This document shows, piece after piece, positions 83 through 20,000 of a stretch of DNA of 20,000 bases (its first letter is position 1; each line of letters opens with the position of its first letter). The stretch is from Sarea resinae (Eukaryota). The stretch spans positions 174,309 to 194,308 of the forward strand of contig JAPEUD010000049.1 of assembly GCA_026026165.1 (NCBI GenBank). Direction: 5' to 3'. The notes beneath the pieces are model-generated. The model searched no databases, was not told the DNA's origin, and saw only the letters and a program-made list of their open reading frames with translations. The translations under genes and the position numbers were made by a program.

Positions 83-1237
83 TTAGGTGGCAGGCAAATT
101 CTTCATGTCGCCTTTTCCGTCTTGAATCCATTTAGGATCAATGAGTCTCTCCTTCTCCGCATAAAGATTCTTGTATGCAGTTCGAATAGTGCCGTCGCTA
201 ACGCCGGCTACAGCAGAAATCTCTTTCGGCGTCTTCCCGTGCTTCATCAAATAAGATGCCATGTAGATACAGGCTGCTGCTGCTGAGATGGGGGAACGGC
301 CTGCAAGAGCCCCAATCAAAGACATTTTCTCAGCTAGTCCTTCGGCGACCATCATGCAAACAGAGGGCAGACCAAGCTGACTGCAATACCGCGAGCACAG
401 GTCTTTAGCGTTTGTTGAAGTTGTTGTGGTGTAGGAGTCGTTGGGGTTGACGACTCCTATATCGATATAGATTAGATCAAATTCTACAAGTCAGATGGGG
501 CAATTTTCAAACTTACCGCCTCCTTGAACTAGCAAATCTTGTTGCTTCTTGTTTTCGATGGTAAAAAATTTCTCCAGGTGTTTGAAAATGCGTCCAATTT
601 CTTTCTTTGATACATTGGTCACCCGAAAGATGTCTTGAAAGGTGCGATTCGCATTTGTCTGCCGGCAGCCAATAAAAAGACAACCAGCAATCACAGCGTC
701 GGTAGATTTGCCTTTGAAAGCCTTTGCATCATCGACCTTCTTAAAGAGCTGCTTGGCAGCGTCCGAAGCGGTCTTAGGAATTGCTAGTTTGTCACTATAC
801 GCGCCAATTTCCTTGTATGCTGCCAGTAGGTTCTTGGTATCTTTATCGTGAGTAGACTTGTTCTGAGCGCGGTGGAGTTCGCGGCTTCTGCTTCCACCGT
901 CACCGAACGAGATGGTTGTCTCCAACTGCGAGCCATTCAGTAAGGGATTTGCCGCATCTCCAACACGTGACGGGTCATCATTCCCTTGGTCGTCATTCGA
1001 AAAAGTGCGCCATTCTGATCGAGTATCCACAATACGATCTCCCAGGACTAGGCCACAAGATCCACACACCATGTCCCCGGAGGAGAACTCTTCGACGAGG
1101 TTGGGTGGGAACTCCTTACAATCGCGACAGATCATCTGCATATTGAGATTCTCCCTCCAAGGTTCTTCGGCCATCACGGGTCTCGTCACATCAGGGCGGT
1201 CCCCCGGATTGGGCACTTGAGCTATCGCTGCTGTCAT
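83..1237 (-). CDS. SUA7: Transcription initiation factor TFIIB; 2 exons (1237-517, 456-83), intron 516-457, about 364 aa
   Basis: N-terminal Zn ribbon CRDC...CGSCG, B-reader motif EWRTFSNDD...DPSRVG, and cyclin-fold repeats ending GRSPISAAAACIY...GVSDGTIRTAYK. The 60-bp intron GTAAGT...CTAAT...TAG joins the two ORF-track pieces in frame (QGG-G-VVNPND). Confidence 0.97.
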
Positions 1238-2310
1238 CTTGACTGTAACTTTGACCTGATTCTTTCGATGAGCGTGTTCGCGTCTCCTCTTGATGGATTT
1301 CGAAGAGGTTGAAAGGTTGAGCTTTTTTGCGCAATGACGGATAAAGAGAGGAGAATACAGCTTGGCGACTGATCGACACTTATGCCAAACGGCAGCAGGA
1401 GAGAACGAAGTGAGTTGGTGGCCGCGTCCTCTGCGGTCGCCACTAGCTCATCAGAGTCAGCCAGCTAATTCGGGAGAGGCAGACTTGATCGCGAACTCGA
1501 TAAACAAGATGCTATGCGAAATGTGCTCAAGAATGCGCCATGAAAGCCAGCTCGGATCTCATTATTACCTTCTATGGTGATGTGGCGCGATGATGCGTTC
1601 CAATCAAACAACAAAGACCCACGGAGGATAGAATCAAAGTGAGATGCGGGGTTTGGTGAATTGCGACTGGAAGGGTGAGCTGCTGCTTGTCCGACCGCTT
1701 CAAGCCAGTGAAGGCGTCCGTTAGAAACCGAGAAGCATCAGGTCCGTAACAGAAGGTCGGTCAGATACGTCTTTCTTCCAAGTTTAAAGAAACAGGCGAG
1801 GCTGTAGTCTATCTTTGTCTCTTAAGAACAGACGTGCTCCGTGCGCAGCAGTACAGCAGGTGGCGAGAAGAAGTGAAGGATGAAGCATTACAAGTCGTCT
1901 AGACTCGAGTGACTACCTATGAGTGAGTCGCTTGCGTTGCGGCTCTTAGGTTCTTTGTTTGAAGGTTGCCTTAGATTTGTCAGCACATTTCCCCAACTCG
2001 GTCTCCAAGTCGGCGACTGCATCTGTGTAGGTAAGGTACCCAGCAGTACTGCGCAGTACTTTCAATTCGGGTAGAGTTCCGTGTATCTGCCAAGGAGACG
2101 AACCCTATCAGCTGTACTGGGGCGGCTCAGAGTACAGAGTACCTAGTACGAGGTACTGGAGAACCTTTAGCCGAAGAAGGCTCTCCTGCCGACAAACCAC
2201 CACCACCAAGACCATATCTTACCGACCTCGAGCCTTCCGCTTCATTTCCAACAATCTCAGTCCCGTCTTGCCGCTGTGGTTTCAATTGAGCTTCATTCGC
2301 CTATCACACC
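1238..2310. promoter_or_regulatory. Shared divergent intergenic region (5' UTRs and promoters) of TFIIB and ATP14
   Basis: The two start codons point away from each other, about 1.07 kb apart. No specific binding sites or transcription starts can be assigned. Confidence 0.5.
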
Positions 2311-3828: not shown

Positions 3829-3963
3829 TTACCTCAGCATGCTCAGACCACATCACGTGGATCCGGATTAACATCCGGCCCGTTCGCGGGCATTCTATAC
3901 CCGCAACTGTACTCTGCGAAGATGTGGTCTGAGGCAGATTTCCTGACGTTGGCGGTGCCACGC
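3829..3963. repeat. Left terminal structure of the DNA transposon (outer TIR, branched foldback, inner IR)
   Basis: The 13-bp stem CTCAGACCACATC (3842-3854) / GATGTGGTCTGAG (3921-3933) encloses hairpins CCGGAT-taac-ATCCGG (3863-3878) and GTT(c)GCGGG...CCCGCAAC (3882-3907). Confidence 0.85.
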
Positions 3964-4673
3964 GGGAGTTTTCATTAATTTTCACAGTGTAAGGAAAAGG
4001 TCAACGTGAATAACTCACTGAATATAGCTCTATATAGCTTTAGAATCTAATCACTTATGAAAAATATATAAGAGTACAACCTATACTAGTTTGTTTGATT
4101 TCCTAGGACCTAGTTTAAGATATCTTATGCTTTAAAGTGAAATCTAAAAATAGCATATTTTGCCCTTTAAGCGCCTTCTTGACACTGACTTTTGTTAAGC
4201 TACTACAATTTTACTAGTAGTTAAGGTACGTACCTTTTCAGGCCCTTATCTTTAAACTCTGCTCCTATATACATACTAATTTAGATTTATTGTGAGGACT
4301 GCAAACAGGCAAATCAGTACCCAGCTGAGTCAAAAAGACTACTATAACTAGCCCCTAGGCTAGTTATACCTATTTACCTACTATATAGCAGCAGTTGTCA
4401 CCTAACGTAGGGAACTGCACTGTCGGCACGTTCCGCGGCACTTACTACCAGTACGTAGCTACGTACTCTGGTGGCCCCCTCAGGTACGTTGCGCAAGTAC
4501 CTCTGTACCTCAAGTACCTCTGTACCTGCGCTCCTGACATTTATCTAGAAATCTAATCACTTATAGAGAAGAAGTAGAGCTTTAATATTAGCTAAAATCA
4601 TTTATATAAAGTGTTGTAGTTAAAGAGATCTTATGCTTTAAAGTCAAAAATTATTGCTTCTAACACATATTCT

Positions 4674-4793
4674 GCGTGGCACTCACAAAGTCAGGCAAAA
4701 GTGCCTCAGACCTCTGGCTGGTCAATTGCCTAATTAGGCAATAGTGGTCCGTGCGGACCACCGACCAAGCGAGGTCTGAGCATGCTGAGGTAA
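4674..4793. repeat. Right terminal structure of the DNA transposon (inner IR, branched foldback, outer TIR)
   Basis: The 10-bp stem CTCAGACCTC (4705-4714) / GAGGTCTGAG (4771-4780), extended by GCTGGTC/GACCAAGC, encloses the palindrome ATTGCCTAATTAGGCAAT (4725-4742) and hairpin GTGGTCCG-tg-CGGACCAC (4744-4761). Confidence 0.88.
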
Positions 4794-5507
4794 GATCTCC
4801 AGTGGGATCGCATCCGTGATTCGTCATGCATCCGCAGTGCGGCCGAGGGCGCTTTCTCGCATGCCCAGACCCTGTCAACCCTGGCTTGGCTGCTCAAACG
4901 CTCATACGACAGGAGTACTTTAGTGCAGCCTGTGCTAGGAGTAATAGTACGGAGTACTCCAGCTGTGCAGCACTCTACTCCGTATGCACTGGATTAGTCG
5001 CATTTCATTACTATTTATTACTTTCTCACCTACGGCAATTGTGCGCTACTACTTCCCTTTCCGTGCTATTGAAGGACTAGGACTACGCTGCGCTCGCTCA
5101 GCCTACCTGGCTTACCTGGCATATCTCATGCCCAAATTCTCCTCTCCCGTCATTTTCACATTCATTTACAGCTGAGGACAGTCTCTGCGGCCCAAATTTA
5201 ATAAACGTTATTGCCTCGTTCTACTTGTGGTCTGGTCTTACCTAGGTGGATCTGCGCTCGCTCGGACCAAGACGTCAGGCATCACGTTCCGCCAGCTCCC
5301 TCGAAGTTTGCCTGCGAAAGACGTTCTGAAATCAGCCTATTCTGTATACTATCAGACTCGAATACCCACCAGTCGCTTCCGCCTAGGTATATATGAACAT
5401 CAGCATTCTGGCTGGACCATGAATGCTTGATACTTGCGAGAGGAGAGGGTCACGACAAAACGTCCAATCTTATCGTGGCATGGAAGGCAAGGGTGTGTCC
5501 CACTGAA

Positions 5508-8500
5508 ATGGCCTCGAGCACTTCTGTATTAGGCCATGCTGTGGATATATCGGGGTCAGCTCGTGATCGAGGCCCGCGTTCTTTGAGAAATGAACAGAAT
5601 GAACTGCCGCGCTCTGCAAGCTACACTTATCTTCCGCTTGATCCAGAGTCCAATTCGGATGATCCAACGAACTTTCCAGTCAAGCGCACCTTCTCCGAAA
5701 ACGTTGTTCCGTCACCGAATGGCGAGGAAGAAGGCGTCGTTTCGTCGAAAAAGACATCAAAAAAGAAATCCAGGCGCGGCATCTCGCCCTTCGGCAGACG
5801 GAAATCATCTCAGGCTGATGCCCAATCGAAGATAACCATATCTAAGTTCGCCCGGTCTTCTGGATGCCCCGACGGAGACACTTCCTATGAGTCCAAAACA
5901 ACGGGGAAGGGGCAAGGAGTACAGCCCGATCCAAAATCTCACTCCAGGCCAGGATCGCTCTCAAACTTTGCGCGCAAGTCCTGGATCTCAGCATCAAGAT
6001 CGCCCTCCCCAAGTAAAACGGAGGAAGATGGAAATATTGAAGACGACGATCGGTCCACCTTACGCAGCTCAATATCTTCGACGGGTCGACGAAAATCCTT
6101 TTCAATTCGTAACGACTCCCTATCTCCACCAAAGGACGCACCTACCGGAGAAGGTAGAGGTCTCGTGAGAAGAGGTACTGGGCTGATCAGGACTTCCAAA
6201 AGACCTCTAAGTGCAATCTTGAAAGGCTCTTCCACGGACGCGTACTCGGGAACCCTCCCTGCCGTGCCGTCCATTCCAAAATCCTTCTCAACGGATAGGC
6301 TTCCTTCGTTTGGCAAGTCTCATCCGTCGTCTGAGAGGCTGCCCCCCGTCCCCAGGTCTCACTCGTCAGAGCGTTTACATGGCTTCGGGCTTCTTGATAG
6401 TCCCCGCAAGAAAGATGAGCTGTGGTCTGCCTTCCGAGGACTCGACGGCGATTTTCAAAAGTAGGCTTCTTATGGACACGTCTGCTAGCATTCGAAGGAT
6501 TGAATTAACTAGCAATAGGTTCCAGTCCAAATCGAGTTCCTTGAAAGCTAACGTTGTTCGAATGTCATTGTTACCCTTCCTCAGAAATTTTGCTCAGCAC
6601 CCTTCGAACAAGATGCTCCGCCCAGAAGACTTGGACCGGAGAATCATCATTCTCAACAAGTGGTGGACAGGACTTCTTGAACTATTAAACGGCCGGACCA
6701 ACCAGTCAATATCAGGAACTGATAGACCTGCTCTTCTAGAGGCAATAGCTGGAATCATGGAGAGACCTGAATGGCGTCTTCCACCATCTTCGTTCTCTCC
6801 ATTAAAAGAAAGGTCTGTAAAGAGTTCTACGCAGTCGCGATCATCAACATCGGTTGAATCATCTGCATCGGAGTTCCTTGCAGAATCGGTCTACCACAAT
6901 GTCCGCAATACCTACGTCCAGAATCTTCTTGCTCAAATGACGTTAGTAATAGAGAAGATGTCCCTTAGGAATGCGCCGGCCAGTCTAGTCACCTTCTGTG
7001 GGAAAGCCTGTGCATACGCATTCTTCTTCTGCCCTGGCGTTGCAGATGTTCTCGTACGACTGTGGAGCACATCGTCGAGCAGCATGCAGCGCATCTTGGA
7101 AGAGTATGGTATTCCACGAATTTCGGATCTGAAAGCCGTCTCCGAGACCATCGTGCCGGGATTTCCTCCGTGTTTAAGCTCTCTAGGATTTGTGTCTCTT
7201 GCTTCGACAGTCAAAACCCTTCGAAAGGGTTCTCCGCTCCCTTTGGGCGCTTCAAACATTCCTTGGTACGGACCTTGGGTAGCTCGATGGTCTGGACGTG
7301 ACAGTGACCTATTTTTTGTTTTCGTGAAACATTTCCATATCCTTCTTGCGGAATTCCTTCCGTCGGACGCGGGAATGGAGGAGAAGATTTGCGCTCCGGG
7401 CTTCATTCTCGTCCTGGCGCAGATGGCAGAGGTCTTAGATTCGACGATTCATCGACGCAATAGTCAGATGCCCCAGGAGCCGTCAGCCGGTCCATCACCA
7501 ATAACTTTTGAGGACGTCCTTGCAGAAACTGACGTCTCGGCAACAACTCTTCCCCTTCCTACGTCGAATGCTACTAGGTCCATGGCCGAAAATCGTCTGA
7601 TAATGCTCTTACGCGAATTACTTTCGGATAGATACGCAGATCTCCAAATGGCGCGCGAGACGTTCGCTGACGCTTTCAACATTGTCCTCAAAGCTTCGGC
7701 TCGTAGGACATCTATTTTTGATCATGGCGCATGTTTCACCCTGTGTGATTTTTTGGAAGAAGCTATTGGAATATTGGAGAGATATGAGCGATTTTCACAA
7801 CCTTCACATCGCGCGATTGATTGGTCATTCTGGTTTGACGTTTTCAGACATATGACGGAAAGTCAGAATATGATGACAGATATACGGCTGTTTGCATTCC
7901 TTTATAGCATATGGGGGTTGATCGCAAGCGATGAAGAACGAAAGCGCGAGCTATGTATCGGATGGCTATTGAGCGGTGAGGTTTTTGAGAAATATTTCAA
8001 CCATTGGTGTCCGATGGTTCGAGCATATTACATGCGATTGCTCTGTTGGCGGTTGGCGAGAGTTGACGGAGAGGGCTCGGCTCTTGACACGTAGGTATGG
8101 CCTATTTCTCTAGTCGGCATCTGCTAACAGAACTTTGAAGTGATATTTTTGTCGTTCTCTCTGGCCGACTCAATTCTATCTGGTCGTACTTCCTTCATTT
8201 AAGGGCCATTTCAGAATCAGATAAGATACTGGCCCCATCAACGGCACCGTGCAATCCAGCCCCGGGGCGCCGTTTCCTTATCATCAGAAATGATAGTCAG
8301 CTAGCCCCCAGGGGAATGTTCCTCTCCTTTGAAGGTGTTGTTCCTCCGTCGGCCAAAAAACAGCCCAGTGCTTTCGAACAGCATGTTTCTGCTGATCAAG
8401 GTTCTCAGGAGGAGCTTGAAAATGGCTCAAAAGCCATAGCGTTTGGGAACGGGGCAGGGTCCGCTCCTGCTTCGAGTCAGGGAAGAAGACGATGGGGACT

Positions 8501-9032
8501 CTTACGAAACATCATGCCTTTCAATTCATCCAACGAGCGATCGAATTCGAAGCAGGCCGGGTCTGTATCTCTTCAGTCAGACATTTCCAGCCAAACATCT
8601 GGTTCAGACAACGAAGGAGAGAAATCATCTTCCAATCAAACAGTGACAAAGGCAGTCAGCAAAGGTCTTTCGTCAAGCACAAAGCCTCAGCATTATCATC
8701 AATTCCGCAACTTTTCATTTCGGTTTTCTCTGGAGTGGATTGAGTCCGCGCCTGGCGCCGGGAAAGAAAGAAGGCTTTACCCACCACGGCTTCCGATGCC
8801 TGCGCAGAACCTTTTGCAATTGACACAAAAGGAACCAGACGAGATCCAACCAGCCCAACCTACTGGTCGGTCGGTCGCTTTCAGCAGATACGCAGGAAAG
8901 GCCCTTGCAGAGTGGGCATTAGTCGTTATAGAATGTCAGAACTTCTTCGAGCGTAGAAAAAGCGAAGGGGTTCCGGAGAACAAATGGGTCGAGACTCCCT
9001 CTCTAGGGGTAGAAAGCGTCCGGAGACATTGA
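5508..9032 (+). CDS. Conserved fungal DUF1765 / UPF0592-family protein; 3 exons (5508-6460, 6519-8090, 8141-9032), about 1138 aa
   Basis: Three ORF-track segments join in frame through introns 6461-6518 (GTAGGC...TTAAC...TAG) and 8091-8140 (GTAGGT...CTAAC...AAG). Motifs recognised from memory: LNKWWTGLL, CGKACAYAFFFCPGVA, YFNHWCPMVRAYYMRLLCWR, YAGKALAEWALVVIECQNFFERR. The N-terminus is Ser-rich and probably disordered. The start codon is less certain. Confidence 0.85.
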
Positions 9033-9610: not shown

Positions 9611-10976
9611 ATGCCTGACGCCATGTCGTCGTTCGGTGATGACGAGACGGCCGAAGGAGACGAGGTATCAGAATTTGAGACAGGAGGGGAAAGTTCAAAT
9701 CCTCTACAGCAAGCCAATAGGTAAGCCGTTCAACTACAATATCATATATCGGAAGGGCTTTGTTCATCGATTTAAGCCTTTTAAAAGTATTTGATGCTGC
9801 CAAGAAAGCACAACGACCAGCTTACTTTGCGGCACCTATGGTCCGGTGAGTCAAAGCCCGCAGGTGTCGGCGCCTATATACTTATCTTAATATCCTTTCT
9901 CCTTTTAGGTACAGTAAGCTGCCTTTCAGAGCTCTAGTACGCTCTTACAATGTGGATGTTTGCTATACTCCGATGGTAAGAGCTCTCCGCATCCATCACT
10001 CGAGGATATCTTACTCTCATGCACTGCGATCCCAGATACTAGCCAAGGAATTTAATCGCAGCGAATTGGCTAGAGATAGCGGTACGTATTTCATTCCACT
10101 GAATATGTCTTGCTAACCAGTCGTCAGACTTCACCACAAATGCCGAGGACAGGCCACTTGTAGTTCAGTTTGGAGCAAACTCTGGCGAGGAGCTTTCTCG
10201 GGCGGCTGAGTTGGTTCAGCCATATTGTGATGGTATTGACTTGAATTGTGGCTGCCCCCAGAGTTGGGCCTGCCAGGAAGGCTTAGGTGCTCACCTCATG
10301 GAGGATAAGCGTAAGGTCCACGATATGATTAGGGCTGTGAAGGTCAGATGCGGACAGAGCTTCTCTGTCAGCGTCAAGATTCGAGTTCACGCTGATCTCA
10401 AGTATCCAAATTATTGGCCCATCATGCTGTTAAATAACGCTGATCGTCGTTCAGGCGTACCGTCGAATTCGTAAGGGCAGTTGAGGCGGCTGGAGTTGAT
10501 TATATCGGCTGCCACGGTCGGCGTAGAAGCCAAAAAAGCAGTGAGCCGGTCGACCTTGAAGCTATTCGACTAGTAAAGGAGGTTGCTACAGTCCCTATTG
10601 TCGCTAACGGCGATGCCTTCAGTCTGGAGGAGGCGGACTACATCGCCAGCCTGACTGGTGCGAACGGTTCGCAGATCTAATCTCTGCATTGTGGGGTGCT
10701 CGTGCTGATCAAACTTTAGGGGTCATGTCTGCTAGAGGGCTCCTGGAGAATCCTGCGCTTTTCGTTGGCCACGGACAAACACCTTGGGACACAATAGAGA
10801 GATTTCTAGGTCTTGCTGTTCGGTATCCCTTGCCTTACAGGCTCGCATTACATCACATATCTGAGATGGGAGCCAAGATGCTCTCTCGTCAAGATAAAGC
10901 AGAGATGCTTGATAATCGTGATATGCTTAGCCTTGTTGACTGGCTAGAGTCTAGGTCTAAGATCAAGAGACTATAA
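9611..10976 (+). CDS. DUS4: tRNA-dihydrouridine(20a/20b) synthase, Dus4-like; 7 exons (9611-9720, 9777-9845, 9909-9975, 10036-10081, 10128-10401, 10455-10666, 10720-10976), about 344 aa
   Basis: Spliced product contains APMVRYSKLPFR, YTPMILAKEF, DRPLVVQFGAN, GIDLNCGCPQSWA (catalytic Cys), SVKIR, HGR, VANGD and GVMSARGLLENPALF. All six introns are GT-AG and preserve frame. Exon 1 and the start codon are the least certain parts. Confidence 0.92.
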
Positions 10977-11084
10977 CTTAAGTGATGTTTTAGATTTATA
11001 GTGGTTTAAGTAATACTATAACAAGACGTTCTATTTAATTAGAAGAATTTAGAAATCATAGTAAATATTAGAGAGTAGTATTAA

Positions 11085-11393
11085 TATAAGGGCCACTACT
11101 AATAAGGGTGCTGTATGCAGCTCGGCGCAGCGCAGGGTAACCACCTGGTGTGGTTCAGCAACGTTTAGGTAAGCTGAGCGAGGTCATTAGTTATATAGAT
11201 CAATAGGGGCGCTAGCTATTAGGGCTAGCGTTCAGTGCAATTACAAAGTCAGTGCCTACTAGCAATATCTATATCTATAGTATTAGTTCTGCATCGCTAG
11301 AGTGACGCTAGCACGCTGCAAGGCACTAGCCTATTTAATTATGCTATTCCTACCTACTCTACTATAGCTAGAAGTCTAAGAGGCAGTCTAACA
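11085..11393 (+). repeat. 5' LTR of the Gypsy element
   Basis: TATAAG (inferred TG before RIP)...TCTAACA. Gap-free match to 18156-18464 with about 17 differences, all transitions. Confidence 0.95.
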
Positions 11394-11396
11394 ATT

Positions 11397-11405
11397 CTAA
11401 ACGCT
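11397..11405 (+). other. Putative self-priming primer-binding site
   Basis: CTAAACGCT starts 4 nt after the 5' LTR. It is the exact reverse complement of AGCGTTTAG in the 3' LTR (18298-18306) and differs by one RIP-type change from AGCGTTCAG in the 5' LTR (11227-11235). Confidence 0.6.
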
Positions 11406-11517
11406 CTACTAACACAGTAGTAGACTAGGTAAGATAGCGACAATAAATACATGTAATACTATAAGGGCTCCTAATACTCTGCTAGGTAAGAGAGCTAATA
11501 GAGACAATAGTAAGACA

Positions 11518-14500
11518 ATAGCAAGCTAGGCAAAAGGCAAGGTTAAGGAGCCTGTCTCTAACTAGATCACTAATTAATTGCTAGACTAAATACAGCAAGA
11601 GTGTGACGCTAAAGAGCGGCAGGCTTAATATCGTTGACTCTAGAGAGAGATAGCCTAGTTCTATACAGAACAGCAACTACAAGCACTTGCATAAGTATTG
11701 CAGCTAGAACAAGGCCTTGCAGCCACCACGCTAGCACCCTGCATCACTAACTAGACTAAAATCCAAGCTCTAGAGCTATTTACAGGCAAGACAATTAAGG
11801 AGCATAATGAATTTGTCTAATCCTATAAGATAGCGTTCTAACTAGGTGCTATTGCAGACAAAAGTGATAATGTAGCAAAGGTGCTATATACTATGCAGTA
11901 CCTAAAAGACAAACTAGCGCTAGCGTGGCACTAGGTTAAAGAATCTACTAGAAAAGACACTTATACCTAGGATAAATTTGTCTTATTCCTGCTAGACTAA
12001 GTAGAAGATCTAGTAAATCAAGGTGGTTTAATATCACAGCTATACTATAACGCTACGCAGGCGCTGCACTAGAGCATTAATAGCTTTACAGCTTTCCTAG
12101 AACAGATTGAACTAGAAGTGCTAGGAGGATAAGACATCCCTAAAGAGCAGCAATACAACTTGTTCTATACTAAGATCTAAAGTGAAATTTACTAGGAACT
12201 GCTCTAAACCCTACTAATACCACGAAAGTAGAGCGCTGCTATAGCGTCAGCAAATTAGGTAGAGGAACTCCTTTGTATAAGCAATAAAAGGAATAAGAAT
12301 AAGAACCCTAATCTATCTAAGCTAGACAATAAGCGACAGCATAGCAATAGCGTAGAGAAGGGAAAGAGTTAGAACAAATAAGGAACTAAACGAAAGTTTA
12401 ATCCTACTAAACGCAAGGGCAAAAGCCTACCTCTATAAGAACAAAAAACTTCTGCTTAGCCTAAGGATAATAAAGGCGATAAGTCTATACAGTGGCCTTA
12501 ACAGCTCTCTAACAAAGAGTATTGCTGCAGGCAAGAAGGCAACCTTTGCCTAAACTGTAGCTAAGAGAGCTACTTTGCTTCTACTTGTAAGAATAAACGC
12601 AACGACAGGCCTACGCTAGCTTTATAACTAGAGCTAAAACCCTACACTATTTGCTATCTTAGTGTAGGAGAACCTTAAGGAGCTCTAACCCTAAAATTAG
12701 AGACGTCGCTAACTATTCGCACCTCTAGTAGTACAGCAGATAGCACTACCTTAATTGACTTAGGAGCAGAAGCTTCTCTAGTTTTGCAATTATAGATTAA
12801 GGAGCATAGGATCCCTAAGGCTAAGCTTAGGCAGCTACCTAGCGCAGTAACAGTGAACAGCTTGCAAGTAGCGATCTACAGCTAACACTAATTAGAAATA
12901 CAAGTCGCTAATAGTAATAGCGTGAGAAAGATAGCGTAGTGCTAGTTCCTTGCCTGCGACTTTAATAGTCCTCTATTCTTACTTAGGTATCTATAGCTGT
13001 CCTTATACCGCCACGATATGCGTTAGTTAGAAGGTAAATTTAGCTACGTTAAGCCTGTAGATAAGCCTAGGCTTAGCAAGGAACATTAGAAGAAACGTCA
13101 GCTAAACTGCTAAGGGATTATAGTAGTGCCTAAACCTATAGAGGCAGTGAAGCTTCGCTAGGTCAGCGCTAGTAACAAGATACCTAAACAGTATAAGGAA
13201 TTTGCTTCTGTCTTTAGCAAAGAGAAAGCTAGCTAGCTTCCTAAGCATAGCCTAGCCGACTATACTATTAAGTTAGAGAGTAAAGACTCTCTCTATAGTC
13301 CTATATATCTATTATCCTAGAAAGAATTAGGTATCCTACAGACCTACCTAGACAACAGCTTAGTAAAGAGGTAGATCACTCTCTCTATAAGCCCTATTAG
13401 TGCGCTAATCTTGTTTGTGCCTAAGAAGGATAGTAGCTTACGACTTTGCGTTGACTACTAGGCGTTAAACAAGGTCACTATTAAGAATCAATACCTATTA
13501 CCCCTTATTTCTAAGCTTATAGACTGAATAAGCAGTGCTAAAGTTTTTTCAAAACTAGACCTAAGAGATGCTTACTACTGCATAAGGATCTGCAAAGGCG
13601 ACAAGTATAAGACAGCGTTCTGCACTTGTTATAGCTAGTTTAAATATAAGGTTATGCTCTTTAGATTAGCTAATGCACCTGCTACATTTTAGAGCTATAT
13701 TAATTATGCGTTACAAGGCCTAGTTAATGTCTACTGCGTTGTCTATCTAGACGACATTCTTATATACTCTAATTCACCTAATAAGCATAAGAAGCATATA
13801 CACTAGGTCCTTAAACAGCTATTAACCTATAGCCTATATGCAAAGCCCTTAAAATGTGTCTTTAGAGTGTAGGAAGTTGATTTCTTAGGATTTGTTATTA
13901 GGACTAATAGTATCGCGATAGAGAAGAGCTAGGTAGACACTATAAAAAAGTGGCTAGCCCTTAAGACCTATTATAACCTCTAAGTCTTCCTAGGATTCGC
14001 GAATTTCTACTAATAGTTTATAGAGAAATACTCTATTAAAGCGCTGCTATTAACTAGCCTGCTTGCTAGGAGCAAGAATAGAAAGAAAAGCAGTCTATTC
14101 TACTTCTCTAAGGAAGCTAAGGAAGCATTTAAAGCCCTAAAAGAAGCTTTTACAACAGCGCCTATACTGCGCTACTACAATCTAAAGAGGCAGATATAAG
14201 TAGAAACAAACGCTTCTAGATTTGCTGTTGCAGCAATTTTATCCTAGCTAGTCAAGGATAAATAGGGCGTGACAACAGCGTTAAGGTAGCACCTAGTTGC
14301 ATACTAGTCTAGAAAGCTTACTAATACTAAATCGAGATATAAAGTGCATGACTTAGAGTTGCTAGCTATTGTAATAGCTTTTAAGCAATAGCGCTATTAC
14401 TTAGAAGAGGCTAATTACCCTATTAAGGTCTTAACTAACTATGCAAATCTACGCTACTTTATAACAACAAAGGAGTTAACCTGTCGCTAGGCTAGATAGG

Positions 14501-16833
14501 CTGAACAGCTAGCAGCGTATGATTTTAAACTTGTATATAGAGCAGAGAAAGCTAATCTAGCTAATAGGCTGTCGCAGCGCCCTAATTACAAGGTAAAGAC
14601 ATAGGGTCTAGAAGTGATACTTCTTACTCTATAGCAGAAGCTGCAGAACCTGCGTATGTTAAAGAGAGACAGCACTGTGCTAGTGATCTAAAACCTTCTT
14701 GCTAGAACAGATAATAAGTATCTAGGCGAAATAGGCGCTAATACACTAAAGGATAATGTGCATCTATAAGGGATTAAAAACCTCTCTAGGTTAAGGGATA
14801 ACACCTTGCCTACTGTTAATAAGCGACAGTAGCGCGCTAGGATAACACCTAGTCTAAGCGTAAAGGATAATGTGTATCTATAAAGGATTAAAACCCTTTC
14901 TAAGTTATAGGATAAAACCTAGCCTAATGTCAAAGAGCGATAGAGAGGCACTAGAGTGACACCTAGGCCTAGCCTAAATAACAATGCTAATAAGCTAGCA
15001 TTAGGAGATAAGTTTAAACACCTCTATATAAGACAAGCAATGCATAAGGCAGCTGCTAATAAAAGAGCGTACAACCTGCTAACAGGCTAGCTGCTTAACG
15101 TTATCCTTAGGACTTAGTAGGAAGATTATTTCGCTAAGGAAAAGATTAAAAGCATTTCTACTAAGGAGGTTACAGGCTAAGAAAAGTGGAAAATAGACTC
15201 TATAGGCCTGCTGCGCCTAGAAGGCAAAGCATATGTGCCGCGTGATGCAGCTATTAGGTTAGAAATCATAAGGATAAACTATAATAACCTGTTTAGTAGC
15301 TACTTTAGCGCTAAGAGAACGATAGAGGTGATCTAGTGTAAATACTAGTAGACTAATTTAGCTAAGGATGTCAAAGAATATATTAATAAGTGCGATATAT
15401 GTTAAAGGGTCTAGGTGCCTAGGCATCGCCTATACAGCGAGCTACAGTCGTTACCTATACCCTACTAGCTGTTTAAAGAAATCACTATAGATTTTGTGAC
15501 AGGCCTGCTGCTAAGCAACACAAGAGATTGCAAGGCCTATAACATAATAATAGTAGTAGTTGACTGCTATACAAAGATAGCGAAATATATTCTATGCTGA
15601 ACAAATCTGAATGCCGCTATACTTGCAGACATATTTGTTAACGTTATAACAACAGCGTATAGCAATCTAAAGCGCATTGTATTAGATAGGGGCAGTGTAT
15701 TTGCAAGCAAGTTTTAGTCAGCGATATGCTATTGAATGCGAATTAAGAACTAGCTTAGCACTGCCTTCTACCTGCAGACAGATAGCTAGACTAAGAGGCA
15801 AAACTAGACGTTAGAACACTACTTACAGTGCTATATAAGCAGCTGCTAGGACGACTAGGCCCTGCTGTTGCCTATAGCTAAGTATGCATACAATAATAGC
15901 ATACATTTGTCTATAGGAATGTCACTCTTCTATGCCCTATATAGCTATAACCTAGATCTGCAACTTAATATCACAGACAATGCTATAGAGAGAGAGGTGC
16001 TAGCAGCGAACAAGCGCCTTAACGTCCTCTAAGAGGTAAGACAAAGACTAGAAGAGGATCTTGCTAAGGCATAGCAGTACTAAGCTAAGTAGTACAATAG
16101 GAAACATAAGCTAATGCAATACAAAAGAGGCGATAGAGTTATGCTGTCAGCGCGCAACCTTAGCACTATACACCTGAGTAAGAAGTTAGAGCACTGCTAT
16201 ATAGGCCTATTTGTAGTACTTAACTCTATAGGCAAGCAAGCCTACTAGTTACAGCTCTCTAAGGCTTATAGATCTATCTACCTTGTATTTTATGTGTCGC
16301 TACTTAAGCGCTACTACAGCAATAGCAATACCTTTCACTAGCACTTTAAGCTAGTTAATAGCTAGGTTAAGTAGATTGTTAAGAAAATCCTAGGCTGTAG
16401 AGTACTTAAGAGAGAACAACAATATCTAGTTAAGTAGAAAAGAGCTCTAGTAGATAATACTAGCTAGGAGCTAGCAGAGCACCTAGCAAACGCTATAGAC
16501 CTAGTATAGGATTATAAACAGCACTTACTCTCTAACTAGTATAGAGGCCTAGCAAACAAGGAATAGGATGCTAGTGTGCTATTAACTAAGCCTTATAGTC
16601 GACTAAGGAAGCGACTGCTTAGTGATAACGCTGTAGAGGCGATAGCTAAGAGGCTAAGAGGCTACCTAAGGAAGAATCTACTACTCTATAAGGAACCCCT
16701 AGCTAGCCTAGAGATGCTAGTAACAAAACGCCTACAAGGAAGGCTATAGAAGTATAGCCTAAAGCTGCAAGTGATTGTAGGAAGGAGACCTTACAGCTGT
16801 CCTAGAAAGGACACGCTGTTGCAGCACTAGTAA
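11518..16833 (+). pseudogene. RIP-destroyed single-frame gag-pol polyprotein
   Basis: Every motif checked is in frame +1, with many TAA/TAG stops. Residues in brackets are inferred pre-RIP. Zn knuckle CLNC...(H)FASTC 12547-12588; protease LID(S)GA 12751; RT FVPKKD(GG)LRLCVDY(R)ALN about 13410-13470 and VYLDDIL 13741; RNase H VET(D)AS 14200; integrase (S)DRG about 15680 and STAF(HP)QTD(GQ)T(E)RQN about 15760; G(P)F about 16200; chromodomain 16369-16500. Both ends are approximate. Confidence 0.93.
14747..14974 (+). repeat. Two tandem 114-bp (38-codon) units in the RNase H-integrase linker
   Basis: TAAAGGATAATGTG(C/T)ATCTATAA(G/A)GGATTAAAA(A/C)CCT... starts at both 14747 and 14861. Confidence 0.85.
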
Positions 16834-17105
16834 GGAGCTGCTATTAGAACTCTTTCTACCCCTTTTACCTACAAAGGTTTTTAGGTGGTTTTAGCAAGCT
16901 AATATAGGGGTAGGCCTGCGATGCGATTGCATGCTAACAGCGTACAGTCTTTATAGAAGGCTATTAGGCTATAGGGCTACAATGCTACAGTTATAAGAGG
17001 AGATAAAGTCATAGAAAAGAAAAGTAAAATTAACCTCTAGCGCTGTCCTAGCGCGAACCTAAAGCTATCTAGTATACAAAGGAAACAGAAAGAACTACTA
17101 TCCTA

Positions 17106-17803
17106 TTACTAACTAGTCTGCCCTGCCTAGCCCTAACTAGCCTAATTGCTAGACCTCTCTAGAGGCGTAGTTGTATTGTTGTTATCCTTATTATCACTCT
17201 TACCTACATGTGTAACAGACAGCAAATCGAACTAGATAACTAGGTTAGCGCTGTTATATCGCTAGCGTTCTACATACAACTTACAGCAAACTAGAGGATA
17301 TTATTAAGGCTTTTAACGCTATTAGTGAGTTGTTCTGTCGCTACAGCTGTACAAAGCGCGTTGTTAGACAAGTGCTTGTTAGCAGCGTTTATATAGACTT
17401 TAACCTAGCGAGTGAATCGCCTCTATAGATTGCAGAGCGCAGCAGCTAACAGCTTCTTAGCAGGGTTATTATTAGCGTAGCTAACCACTACGTTAGCCGC
17501 CTTAGTAAGCTAGTTTAGGCGCTTGCAGAAGACTATAGGCACCTTTAGCACGCTAGGTCAGAGCCTAGCTAGCACTATATAGGAGTCACTTACCTAACTA
17601 CACTTCTTATACAACTAAGCACATTATATGCACTTTGCAGCTAATAAGGCCTTTGTACAAACAATATCTAGTGTAGACCTAATAACCTTAGCGCAGCAGA
17701 GGCAGACGTCCTAATTCAGTTCTATAGGCTTTTAGAGGGCGGTAGCAGGCTAGTTTACATGTAGCAGAGGCGCAGCAAAGCGTCTAGGATTTATAATAGG
17801 CAT
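17106..17803 (-). pseudogene. RIP-mutated antisense 3-exon accessory gene of the Gypsy element (exons 17803-17594, 17542-17285, 17231-about 17106; about 197 aa) with a Zn2Cys6-like Cys cluster
   Basis: ATG at 17803 and the pattern C-x2-C-x11-C-x8-C-x2-C-x6-C. Two phase-0 introns: GTAAGT...CTGAC...AAG (17593-17543) and GTAAGT...CTAAC...TAG (17284-17232). All internal stops are TAG/TAA that RIP can explain. The true stop is uncertain. Confidence 0.78.
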
Positions 17804-18140
17804 ATAGAACGTACCTAAAACATAGTGCAAAAAGTTTAATTATACACGCGCGCACTAGATCACCTACGTTTTATACCTACACACCTATAGCTAAGCAACC
17901 TCTAAGCGATAGAGAGAATGCCTAATGCAGACAGTTTAAAGCATTCACTCTATCTATTTACTGCTGCTACTCTAGCGCAGCGTTTAGCAAACTAAGCAAA
18001 TAGGACAAAGAACTCTCTTTATTATCTACATAAATTCACTGTTTGCAGCGAATAGCAACGCTACTAAGGCGCTAGCAAGACAAAGACTTAACACTATAAT
18101 GTTATACATCGCGAACAAAGGACCTAGAGGACTAGGTCCT

Positions 18141-18155
18141 AGGAGAGGAGGTAAT
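18141..18155 (+). other. Polypurine tract
   Basis: AGGAGAGGAGGTAAT immediately 5' of the 3' LTR. Confidence 0.8.
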
Positions 18156-18464
18156 TATAAGGGCTACTACTAATAAGGGTGCTGTATGCAGCTTAGCGCA
18201 GCGCAGGGTAACTACCTAGTGTGGTTTAGCAACGTTTAGGTAAGCTAAGCAAGGTTATTAGTTATATAGATTAATAGGGGCGCTAGCTATTAGGGCTAGC
18301 GTTTAGTGCAATTACAAAGTTAGTGCCTACTAGCAATATCTATATCTATAGTATTAGTTCTGCATTGCTAGAGTGACACTAGCACGCTGCAAGGCACTAG
18401 CCTATTTAATCATGCTATTCCTACCTACTCTACTATAGCTAGAAGTCTAGGAGGCGGTCTAACA
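18156..18464 (+). repeat. 3' LTR of the Gypsy element
   Basis: Direct repeat of 11085-11393 at offset 7071; ends TCTAACA followed by TTAA. Confidence 0.95.
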
Positions 18465-18850
18465 TTAAGTAGGTAGTCTCTTAATTATTACTAGGTACTA
18501 GGTACTAGTACTAGACAAGTGATATACTATAAATATACAGTTAAACCTACTTATAATAGTAGAGGTTTAAGAATCTAGAAAAGGTTTAACACTATTATAA
18601 GACCTAAAAAGGTTTAATATAGTCTTAACACTTAGAGTAGGTTTTAGAGACCTATAGAAGGTCTTAAAACTCTTAATACTATTATAATATAGTCTTAAAC
18701 TAGTTATAAAAACCTCTTTAAAGGCACTTAAGTACCTTAGTACTATATTAAGTAATTTTAAAACTGTGTTTAAACTGTGTTAAAACTATATTATTACTAC
18801 TATAAGTGTTAACACCTATAGAAATTATAAGACAGTACTATAACAGTGTT
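18465..18850. repeat. Unclassified, heavily RIP-degenerate AT-rich repeat relic
   Basis: Very AT- and TpA-rich, with short reiterated motifs (AAAAGGTTTAA, AATATAGTCTTAA, AAACTGTGTT). No recognisable protein motif. Confidence 0.5.
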
Positions 18851-19027
18851 TGTTATAAGGTAGTATAAATATATAAGTAAAGAAAGGTGCTAAAGAAGTA
18901 TAGTATAGAATAATTATATATTATAAACTTAGAGATTCTAGCTATAGAGGTAGAAGGCAGTTAATATATAGACTTAACTAACTTAATAGAAAATTCTAGC
19001 AATAACTAATTGTATAAGTGATTTGTA
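18851..19027 (-). mobile_element. 3' part of a Copia-type LTR in minus orientation (solo or 3' LTR, apparently interrupted)
   Basis: Reverse complement aligns with 19351-19528 over about 177 bp with one indel. It ends in ...ATAACA at 18851 and is not followed by a PBS. Confidence 0.75.
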
Positions 19028-19081
19028 TTAGAATTATAACCTTAATTCTAGTCACTCTTAAGTATCTAGACTATTATAGAA

Positions 19082-20000
19082 TGTTATATAATTGTATAGA
19101 TATATCTAGAAGCTTCTATAGACCTATAGAAGCTAATAGAATATAGTAGAACCTTATAGAATCTTATAAAACTTTCTAGAAGATTCTATAGCTATGCTGA
19201 CTAAGCATCACTATATGCTGACTAAGTATCTAAAACCTTTTAGATTACTCTAGAATGTTCTAGAACTACCTAGTAGTCTATAGAATCTCTTAGATATCTA
19301 TAGAATCTCTATAATATAAGAGTTATATAGTAACTATCCTCTAACTTTCTTACAAATCACTTATGTAATTAGTTATCACTAGAAGTTTCTAGTAAGTTAG
19401 TTAAGTCTATATATTAACTGCCTTACACCTCTATAGCTAGAATCTCTAAGTTTATAATATACAATTATTCTATACTATACTTCTTTAGGCACCTTCCTCT
19501 ACTTATATCTTTATACTACCTTTAAACAGGTTATAAGCCTTGCTAGCCTGCTAAAGAAGCCTATAATTTCGTGGTTTTTTCACCTATAGCCACTGAAATT
19601 CCTTTAAAGAAGAGTTAAACTTCCTCTTTTTCACCTAAAAAGACTAGGTCCTATAGTCTTTATAGTCCCTAGGCAGTTATATAGCCTCTTAGAGGTTATA
19701 TAACTTAACTTGCAGATAAGAACCACTTAGAGTAGACTGCTTAAACTAAGCCTATACTTATAGACATTGTGTATACACACACTTAATAAGGATTTTCCTA
19801 ATCCTTTGTGCTGCCTTATAGGCATAATCCCCTTTGAAGGGAAACACCTATAGGAGAGCAAGTTAAGTGCTTAATGTATGCTGCCTTTACCTAGTCCTAT
19901 AGTACCTATAGCTTGTGTCTATAGAACTATAGTATAGCAGCCTGTGTTCTGCACACCTTAGCAGCTTGTGTTCTGCAAAGCAGCCTTTGTGCCGCAATTT
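19082..20000 (+). mobile_element. 5' end of a RIP-mutated Ty1/Copia-type retrotransposon: LTR about 19082-19528, PBS 19529-19540, internal leader running off the window
   Basis: TGTTA...AAACA boundaries followed directly by GGTTATAAGCCT, the RIP form of GGTTATGAGCC seen after Copia 5' LTRs. The LTR has reiterated TAGAA/TTCTA motifs and two ATGCTGACTAAG copies. No coding motif is recognised in the window, and the LTR start is less certain than its end. Confidence 0.7.

Follow-up and report, generated by a model that had tools for sequence, protein, structure and literature searches.

AT-hooks are described as binding the minor groove of DNA through an RGR core (PMC11354804), and in CBX2, BRG1 and LEDGF/p75 they act alongside chromatin readers (PMC11354804; PMC5053271). 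LEDGF tethers the HIV integrase to chromatin (PMC5053271, PMC11354804). In Neurospora, HCHC is reported to reach heterochromatin by means of HP1 together with CHAP's AT-hooks (PMC7544195), and the loss of multi-hook proteins is reported to have left DNA methylation not greatly reduced (PMC11381320). Among retrotransposons, the chromodomain of MAGGY from Magnaporthe oryzae is described as binding H3K9me2/3, and heterochromatin targeting has been proposed for it (PMC3350952).

The pile-up of fungal retrotransposons in AT-rich RIP compartments is usually ascribed to chromodomains and selection. RIP is a process of fungi. An AT-hook fused to the integrase, found in about one in ten intact relatives of the element reported here and four times in the element itself, offers another candidate, one at the level of sequence, and intact natural tails make it open to testing. 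Should it steer insertion, the hooked integrase would contain a compact targeting module of its own, and genome defence would be linked directly to two-compartment genome structure. No description of AT-hooks in chromovirus integrases was found among the titles and opening abstracts searched, and the word "hook" has no occurrence in PMC3350952 and PMC3248453.

The element of Sarea resinae resembles MAGGY-type chromoviruses in its LTRs, the 5-bp target duplications at most two-sided sites of its family, its enrichment in AT-rich repeat clusters and its PR-RT-RH-INT-SH3-chromodomain order, and it differs from them in having Ala as the third cage residue and, behind the chromodomain, a four-hook tail some 100 residues long. 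It shares a chromodomain followed by an RGRP tail with intact relatives such as P0021, P0063 and P0133 and with the fish proteins P0268, P0272, P0275 and P0276; nearly all members of this larger hook-bearing group have one hook. Its likeness to HMGA, that is several PRGRP-type hooks with short linkers, is a resemblance of motif alone, whereas HMGA is a free chromatin protein and is described as having three hooks (PMC11354804). Like LEDGF/p75 (PWWP and AT-hooks), CBX2 (chromodomain and AT-hook) and HCHC, it places a reader of histone marks beside AT-hooks; however, those systems are host-encoded while here the element's own integrase carries both parts, and the analogy is one of function only. 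What the locus adds is a four-hook array next to a degraded cage, one hook seen in an apparently un-RIPed contig, and controls within the same genome.

Structure of the element and RIP damage

The window, meaning the whole stretch of 20,000 nucleotides that was analysed, is G000:C88:174309-194308 of Sarea resinae. An LTR retrotransposon occupies positions 11085-18464 and is a Ty3/Gypsy chromovirus inactivated by RIP. Its two 309-bp LTRs (5' LTR, 11085..11393; 3' LTR, 18156..18464; both on the plus strand) form a direct repeat with 17 differences, every one of them a transition (C/T or A/G), and a polypurine tract can be read in the sequence at 18141..18155 (plus strand). The gag-pol remnant lies in a single plus-strand frame (11446..16833, start approximate; translated with X at its many RIP stops) and contains protease, RT, RNase H, integrase, SH3, chromodomain and tail. 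The RT motif YLDD is found at position 13744, and the frame translation gives RT, RNase H and integrase in the order known from Ty3/Gypsy chromoviruses. The top homologues carry the Pfam domains RVT_1, RT_RNaseH, Integrase_H2C2, rve, SH3_Tf2-1 and Chromo, and the homologue sets of 89 and 150 proteins consist mostly of Ty3/Gypsy polyproteins with a chromodomain. A Tf2-1-like SH3 of the integrase was recognized at 16129..16314 (plus strand; Pfam PF24626, SH3_Tf2-1, E=1.4e-15), and the reading frame probably ends at TAG TAA (16828..16833, plus strand), both codons being present in all 12 RIPed copies. A repeat search also detected an in-frame tandem duplication of 114 bp (77% identity) in the linker between RNase H and integrase (14747..14974, plus strand).

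A 3' fragment belonging to the family but free of RIP (L025) sits at the end of contig C107, where it breaks off about 80 bp past hook 4. Compared with this fragment, positions 16892-18464 of the window show 271 differences over 1,573 ungapped bases, 270 of which are C-to-T or G-to-A. The changes affect 112 of 196 CpA (57%) and 141 of 298 CpG (47%), against 14 of 244 CpC and 3 of 179 CpT in the disfavoured contexts. CpG is targeted by RIP nearly as often as CpA in the Sarea resinae genome. DNA, protein and pattern searches of the assembly for an un-RIPed tail returned only RIPed copies (12, 12 and 10, respectively).

On the minus strand, at 17106..17794, lies what is left of an antisense gene that has a six-cysteine motif and apparently contains introns. 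It was made out by eye in the un-RIPed fragment, where L025:2171-2859 can be aligned to these window positions without gaps. Two of its exons were compared with Pfam and gave no match. Boty-like elements are described as carrying an antisense gene, brtn (PMC7264820, PMC8365987), and in layout, the only feature compared, the present element is like Boty of Botrytis cinerea, where an accessory gene likewise runs antisense in the stretch that separates pol from the 3' LTR. In the older subfamilies (L004-L012) the middle of the 3' region (within window positions 16892-18155) retains only 50-73% identity with many indels, while their pol tails are 85-96% alike, a divergence which suggests turnover of the accessory gene.

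Chromodomain and aromatic cage

The chromodomain is located at 16372..16524 (plus strand), at the integrase's C-terminus, as in the relatives. The RIPed window copy scores 18.9 bits with Pfam PF00385 (E=0.0014), which is below the Pfam Chromo cut-off of 25.1 bits. Cage positions 1 and 2 read TAG in all 12 copies, which is compatible with Trp, and were never seen as Trp. The third position (16444..16446, plus strand) is Ala, spelled GCT in 12 of 12 copies, and the argument of the sequence-only reading that RIP is unable to derive Ala from an aromatic codon holds. The same position is aromatic in 177 of the 209 relatives that were scored and Ala in two.

Group I (HP1-like) chromodomains are described as having three aromatic cage residues, Y24, W45 and Y48 (PMC3350952), and in the present element this set is incomplete, the third position being Ala. 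Group II chromodomains, known from plants, have no first and usually no third aromatic residue according to the same source (PMC3350952); compared with this definition, the first cage position here is compatible with Trp in the RIPed copies. The plant group II elements, whose chromodomains have no cage residues, are nonetheless described as mostly heterochromatic (PMC3350952).

AT-hooks in the integrase tail

Four codon strings behind the chromodomain had been proposed to revert to AT-hooks through RIP-type changes only. All four were confirmed in position and in the gag-pol frame, and PRGRP[RK] is compatible with the four tail sites in 12 of 12 copies. The core of AT-hook 1 (16588..16611) was seen in an apparently un-RIPed contig of sequencing run X1, and the assembled copies force P, R, G and R as the first four residues of this core. 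The putative hooks 2 (16648..16674), 3 (16726..16752) and 4 (16783..16809), like hook 1 on the plus strand, are each compatible in all 12 copies. Gly alone is forced in hook 2, where the differences can be placed in the hot context; Arg and Gly are forced by two subfamilies in hook 3, and both prolines are forced in hook 4. The hooks are spaced 21, 26 and 19 codons apart. GRP as written is found in none of the 12 assembled tail-bearing copies, the window copy included.

When RIP-type differences are allowed, the motif PRGRP[RK], which was picked post hoc, fits at four sites among the 100 codons of the tail, whereas the 1,695 codons upstream of them in this frame contain no such site. Four sites were reached in none of 20,000 codon shuffles (best 3) and in none of 20,000 base shuffles (best 2), and if the following Lys is added to the motif the four tail sites are the sole matches in six frames of the whole element. 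Moreover, all 17 differences needed for the hooks can be placed in CpA/CpG context, and a rule restricted to this context gave at most one match in each of 20,000 shuffles. The bare RGRP was dropped as a test because it is frequent by chance, with five RIP-compatible matches in the tail and five in the body, and with at least five in 105 of 20,000 codon shuffles. Chance-compatible sites are frequent in heavily RIPed DNA, one strand of L070 having nine in 3.5 kb.

Transversions among the 12 copies fall in the third codon position in 13 of 19 cases over 16201-16830 and in four of four cases inside the hook cores, which suggests that the hook residues were under selection. The Pfam AT_hook model (PF02178) gave no match on the RIPed tail; it is insensitive even to intact hooks, since among 10 intact proteins, nine of them hook-bearing, it gave a single match, missing eight of the nine hook-bearing proteins and scoring the ninth below the cut-off. 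These data support a tail in which AT-hook motifs followed the chromodomain in the same reading frame, and hooks 2-4 were very probably present in the working protein, judging by the residues that the RIPed codons still permit.

The element was found in one public sequencing run (X1), with no RNA run among the matches listed. An X1 contig of 200 bases with a depth of 984 covers window positions 16462-16654 and has 25 differences from copy L003, with which it was compared; the other X1 pieces listed have depths of mostly 340-490, and one of 862. Differences were ascribed to this contig by the depth value, and among the 40 of 66 differences that were listed the nine unique to depth 984 all run opposite to the direction of RIP. 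The contig has sense codons at the stops 16537 and 16564 and a complete hook-1 core, and it is apparently an un-RIPed copy. The third stop before the hooks, at 16507, is a sense codon in one of the 12 copies. The sequence-only reading had allowed for a real stop between the chromodomain and the hooks, and these sense codons in the contig and in one copy indicate that there was none. X1 is possibly the assembly's own sample and would therefore not be independent of the assembly.

Hooks in intact relatives

The survey of fungal Gypsy elements that had been advised recovered the combination of chromodomain and hook. From 237 intact proteins retrieved with the window's own sequence, 19 without a chromodomain match were left out, and a strict hook behind the chromodomain was present in 21 of the remaining 218 (20 with one, 1 with three). 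Shuffled tails gave a mean of 0.9 hook-bearing relatives and a maximum of 4 (1,000 shuffles). In 5,968 tail residues there are 22 occurrences of the motif, whereas the 223,763 residues upstream contain one. P0133, with three hooks, is the maximum by regular expression, and P0063, P0277 and P0278 have two GRP cores by eye; none of the relatives examined has a four-hook tail. The median tail length of the relatives is 19 residues. GRP-free basic tails were found in 197 of the 218 proteins, and most of these look like nuclear localisation signals.

The 31 hook rows among the 232 rows of the tree need 24 changes (shuffled mean 29.5), a scatter indicating that the hook was often gained or lost. The rows nearest to the window copy are hook-free, and the copy itself lies on a long, compositionally odd branch. 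A search with the P0133 tail, which is biased toward hooks, added 27 further proteins, 11 of them hooked; four of the five that it added from the fish Cirrhinus mrigala have a hook. The fish Gypsy proteins named above (P0268, P0272, P0275, P0276) have a C-terminal chromodomain and a motif of the RGRGRPR type. The pairing of chromodomain and hook is thus not restricted to fungi with RIP. The proposal of a RIP-specific module does not agree with fish Gypsy proteins that also end in a chromodomain plus RGRP, and a RIP-specific adaptation is doubtful.

A hook was found in 6 of 32 relatives with a degenerate cage and in 15 of 177 of the others, after leaving out 9 of the 218 in which the cage could not be scored; this difference is not significant (p=0.10), and the rows are not independent. 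The three-hook protein P0133 is also without the third aromatic cage residue.

Insertion sites and AT content

Thirty of 40 LTR matches were counted as 20 independent sites, and L042, which has a truncated LTR and 47-48% GC beyond it, was excluded from these. At 19 of the 20 sites the DNA is AT-rich, meaning that on one or both sides GC is at most 35% within 200 bp. In the background, a non-random sample of 15 stretches at a fixed 50-kb offset, only 10 of 356 bins of 200 bp are under 35% GC. In the comparison of flanks with background suggested beforehand, most insertions are in AT-rich DNA. The RIPed copy C138 is in normal-GC DNA.

A 5-bp target duplication was found at 11 of the 13 two-sided family sites, the window and C60 copies being mismatched. 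The flanks of the window copy (11080-11084 and 18465-18469) show no 5-bp duplication and have a host gene on the left and a RIP relic on the right. A 4-bp TTAA duplication at this copy was rejected because the duplications of the family are of 5 bp. The C60 copy is alike in this, and at both copies the cause may be recombination with another copy or an error of assembly. The statement that this copy sits in AT-rich DNA is correct for the right flank, which has 26% GC over 1 kb, but not for the left flank, where 21% GC extends for about 100 bp and is followed by a host gene of 50% GC.

At about eight sites the AT-rich halo measures merely 100-600 bp, and halos of this size could be produced by RIP spreading from the element. 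Un-RIPed junctions were found at the ends of contigs C133 and C107, in 20-26% GC, and at the end of C108, in 27-28% GC, while on C63 an LTR piece of 123 bp, likewise un-RIPed, has surroundings of 47-52% GC; two of the three un-RIPed junction sites are thus AT-rich. The DNA around these two un-RIPed insertions has 20-28% GC, and it was already AT-rich when they arrived. The ends of C133 and C107 share one 5-bp duplication, and the two contigs are probably joined through one unassembled recent insertion.

Elements without hooks provide the comparison within the genome. In two RIPed Gypsy families that show no hook consistently in frame, 8 of 11 sites are AT-rich, and the difference from the 19 of 20 sites of the hooked family gives p=0.115 (Fisher) with small numbers. 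Moreover, an intact hook-less chromovirus (C108:124069-132586), with a frame of 2,102 codons, aromatic cage residues and no GRP, has identical 144-bp LTRs and surroundings of 26-27% GC. As the hook-less families and this intact element are also in AT-rich DNA, placement caused by the hooks is not supported, and these controls argue against crediting the hooks with it. In the Sarea resinae genome, one hooked and one hook-less chromovirus have both inserted recently and escaped RIP, so that nature itself provides a comparison.

Proposed role of the hook array

The dual targeting module proposed by the sequence-only reading keeps its structural side, namely hooks in frame, a cage that has lost its third aromatic residue, and insertions that are mostly AT-rich. 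Its central claim, that the hooks steer integration into RIP relics, is not supported, the sites of the hook-less families being likewise AT-rich (p=0.115). We lean slightly towards a reading of the hook array as a multivalent tether, giving extra DNA affinity and some AT bias beside a weakened chromodomain. The working protein would end in SH3, chromodomain and a tail, roughly 100 residues long, along which four AT-hooks are evenly spaced. The hooks would grip the minor groove and so keep the complex that carries out integration on nucleosomal DNA rich in AT, the methyl-lysine cage of the adjoining chromodomain would be weakened, and the array would add affinity and some AT bias to an insertion directed to heterochromatin, in a manner comparable to the hooks beside the PWWP of LEDGF/p75 and the chromodomain of CBX2. 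It may represent an expansion of a single-hook tail which has been gained and lost often among chromoviruses, and it would be dispensable for reaching RIP relics. The DNA binding, the weakened histone reading and any effect on target choice are what we infer.

It is possible, though somewhat unlikely, that the hooks, although real, serve for nuclear import or bind DNA and RNA without specificity, with placement resulting from chromatin targeting, selection against genic insertions and RIP spreading into the flanks. AT-rich placement common to hook-less elements, the 197 of 218 intact relatives with basic GRP-free tails and the occurrence of the hook in fish elements are all consistent with this, and the NLS and AT-hook-like motifs of LEDGF are described as a case of non-specific DNA binding (PMC11354804). 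Nevertheless, an exact PRGRP[RK] repeated four times, with core transversions in third positions only, is unnecessary for import, and GRP is far above what the composition of the tail leads one to expect. The broader idea that some chromoviruses carry a dual reader of the LEDGF or HCHC kind, and that in this family the reader has come to recognise DNA instead of histone methylation, a degraded cage and an HMGA-like array of four hooks steering integration to AT-rich DNA made by RIP, is a tentative one and rather improbable.

A replacement of the broken cage by the four hooks, which as the main targeting device would read RIP-made AT-rich DNA, seems quite unlikely to us. Such a role would agree with the Ala that all 12 copies have as their third cage residue, with the missing third aromatic residue of P0133, the sole three-hook relative, and with AT-rich DNA at 19 of 20 sites and at two un-RIPed insertions. 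However, the excess over the hook-less families is not significant (p=0.115, small numbers), the link between cage and hook reaches only p=0.10, sites of normal GC exist (C138, C63), and plant group II elements are described as mostly heterochromatic without cage residues (PMC3350952). That hooks 2-4 arise artificially from allowing back-mutation freely in an AT-rich basic tail is highly improbable in view of the shuffle tests, the forced residues, the third-position transversions and the direct sight of hook 1, even though GRP is spelled in none of the 12 assembled copies and chance-compatible sites are frequent in heavily RIPed DNA such as L070.

Neighbouring genes and other elements

The host genes of the window encode TFIIB (83-1447, minus strand), a DUF1765 protein (5397-9032, plus strand) and a tRNA-dihydrouridine synthase (9850-10976, plus strand), the last frame of which ends 108 bp upstream of the 5' LTR. 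An AT-rich element at 18851-19528, with inverted arms of 147 nt at 91% and 40 nt at 88%, is probably a RIPed non-autonomous DNA transposon. Another feature, at 3829-4793, has inverted repeats of 21 nt that match perfectly and are separated by 923 nt, with a 32-nt direct repeat inside, and this is a possible un-RIPed MITE. Elsewhere in the genome, stop-free retroelement frames were found at G000:C42:2594-4873 (1,256 codons) and at C52:18312-21089 (1,053 codons), the latter nested in a copy of the hooked chromovirus family.
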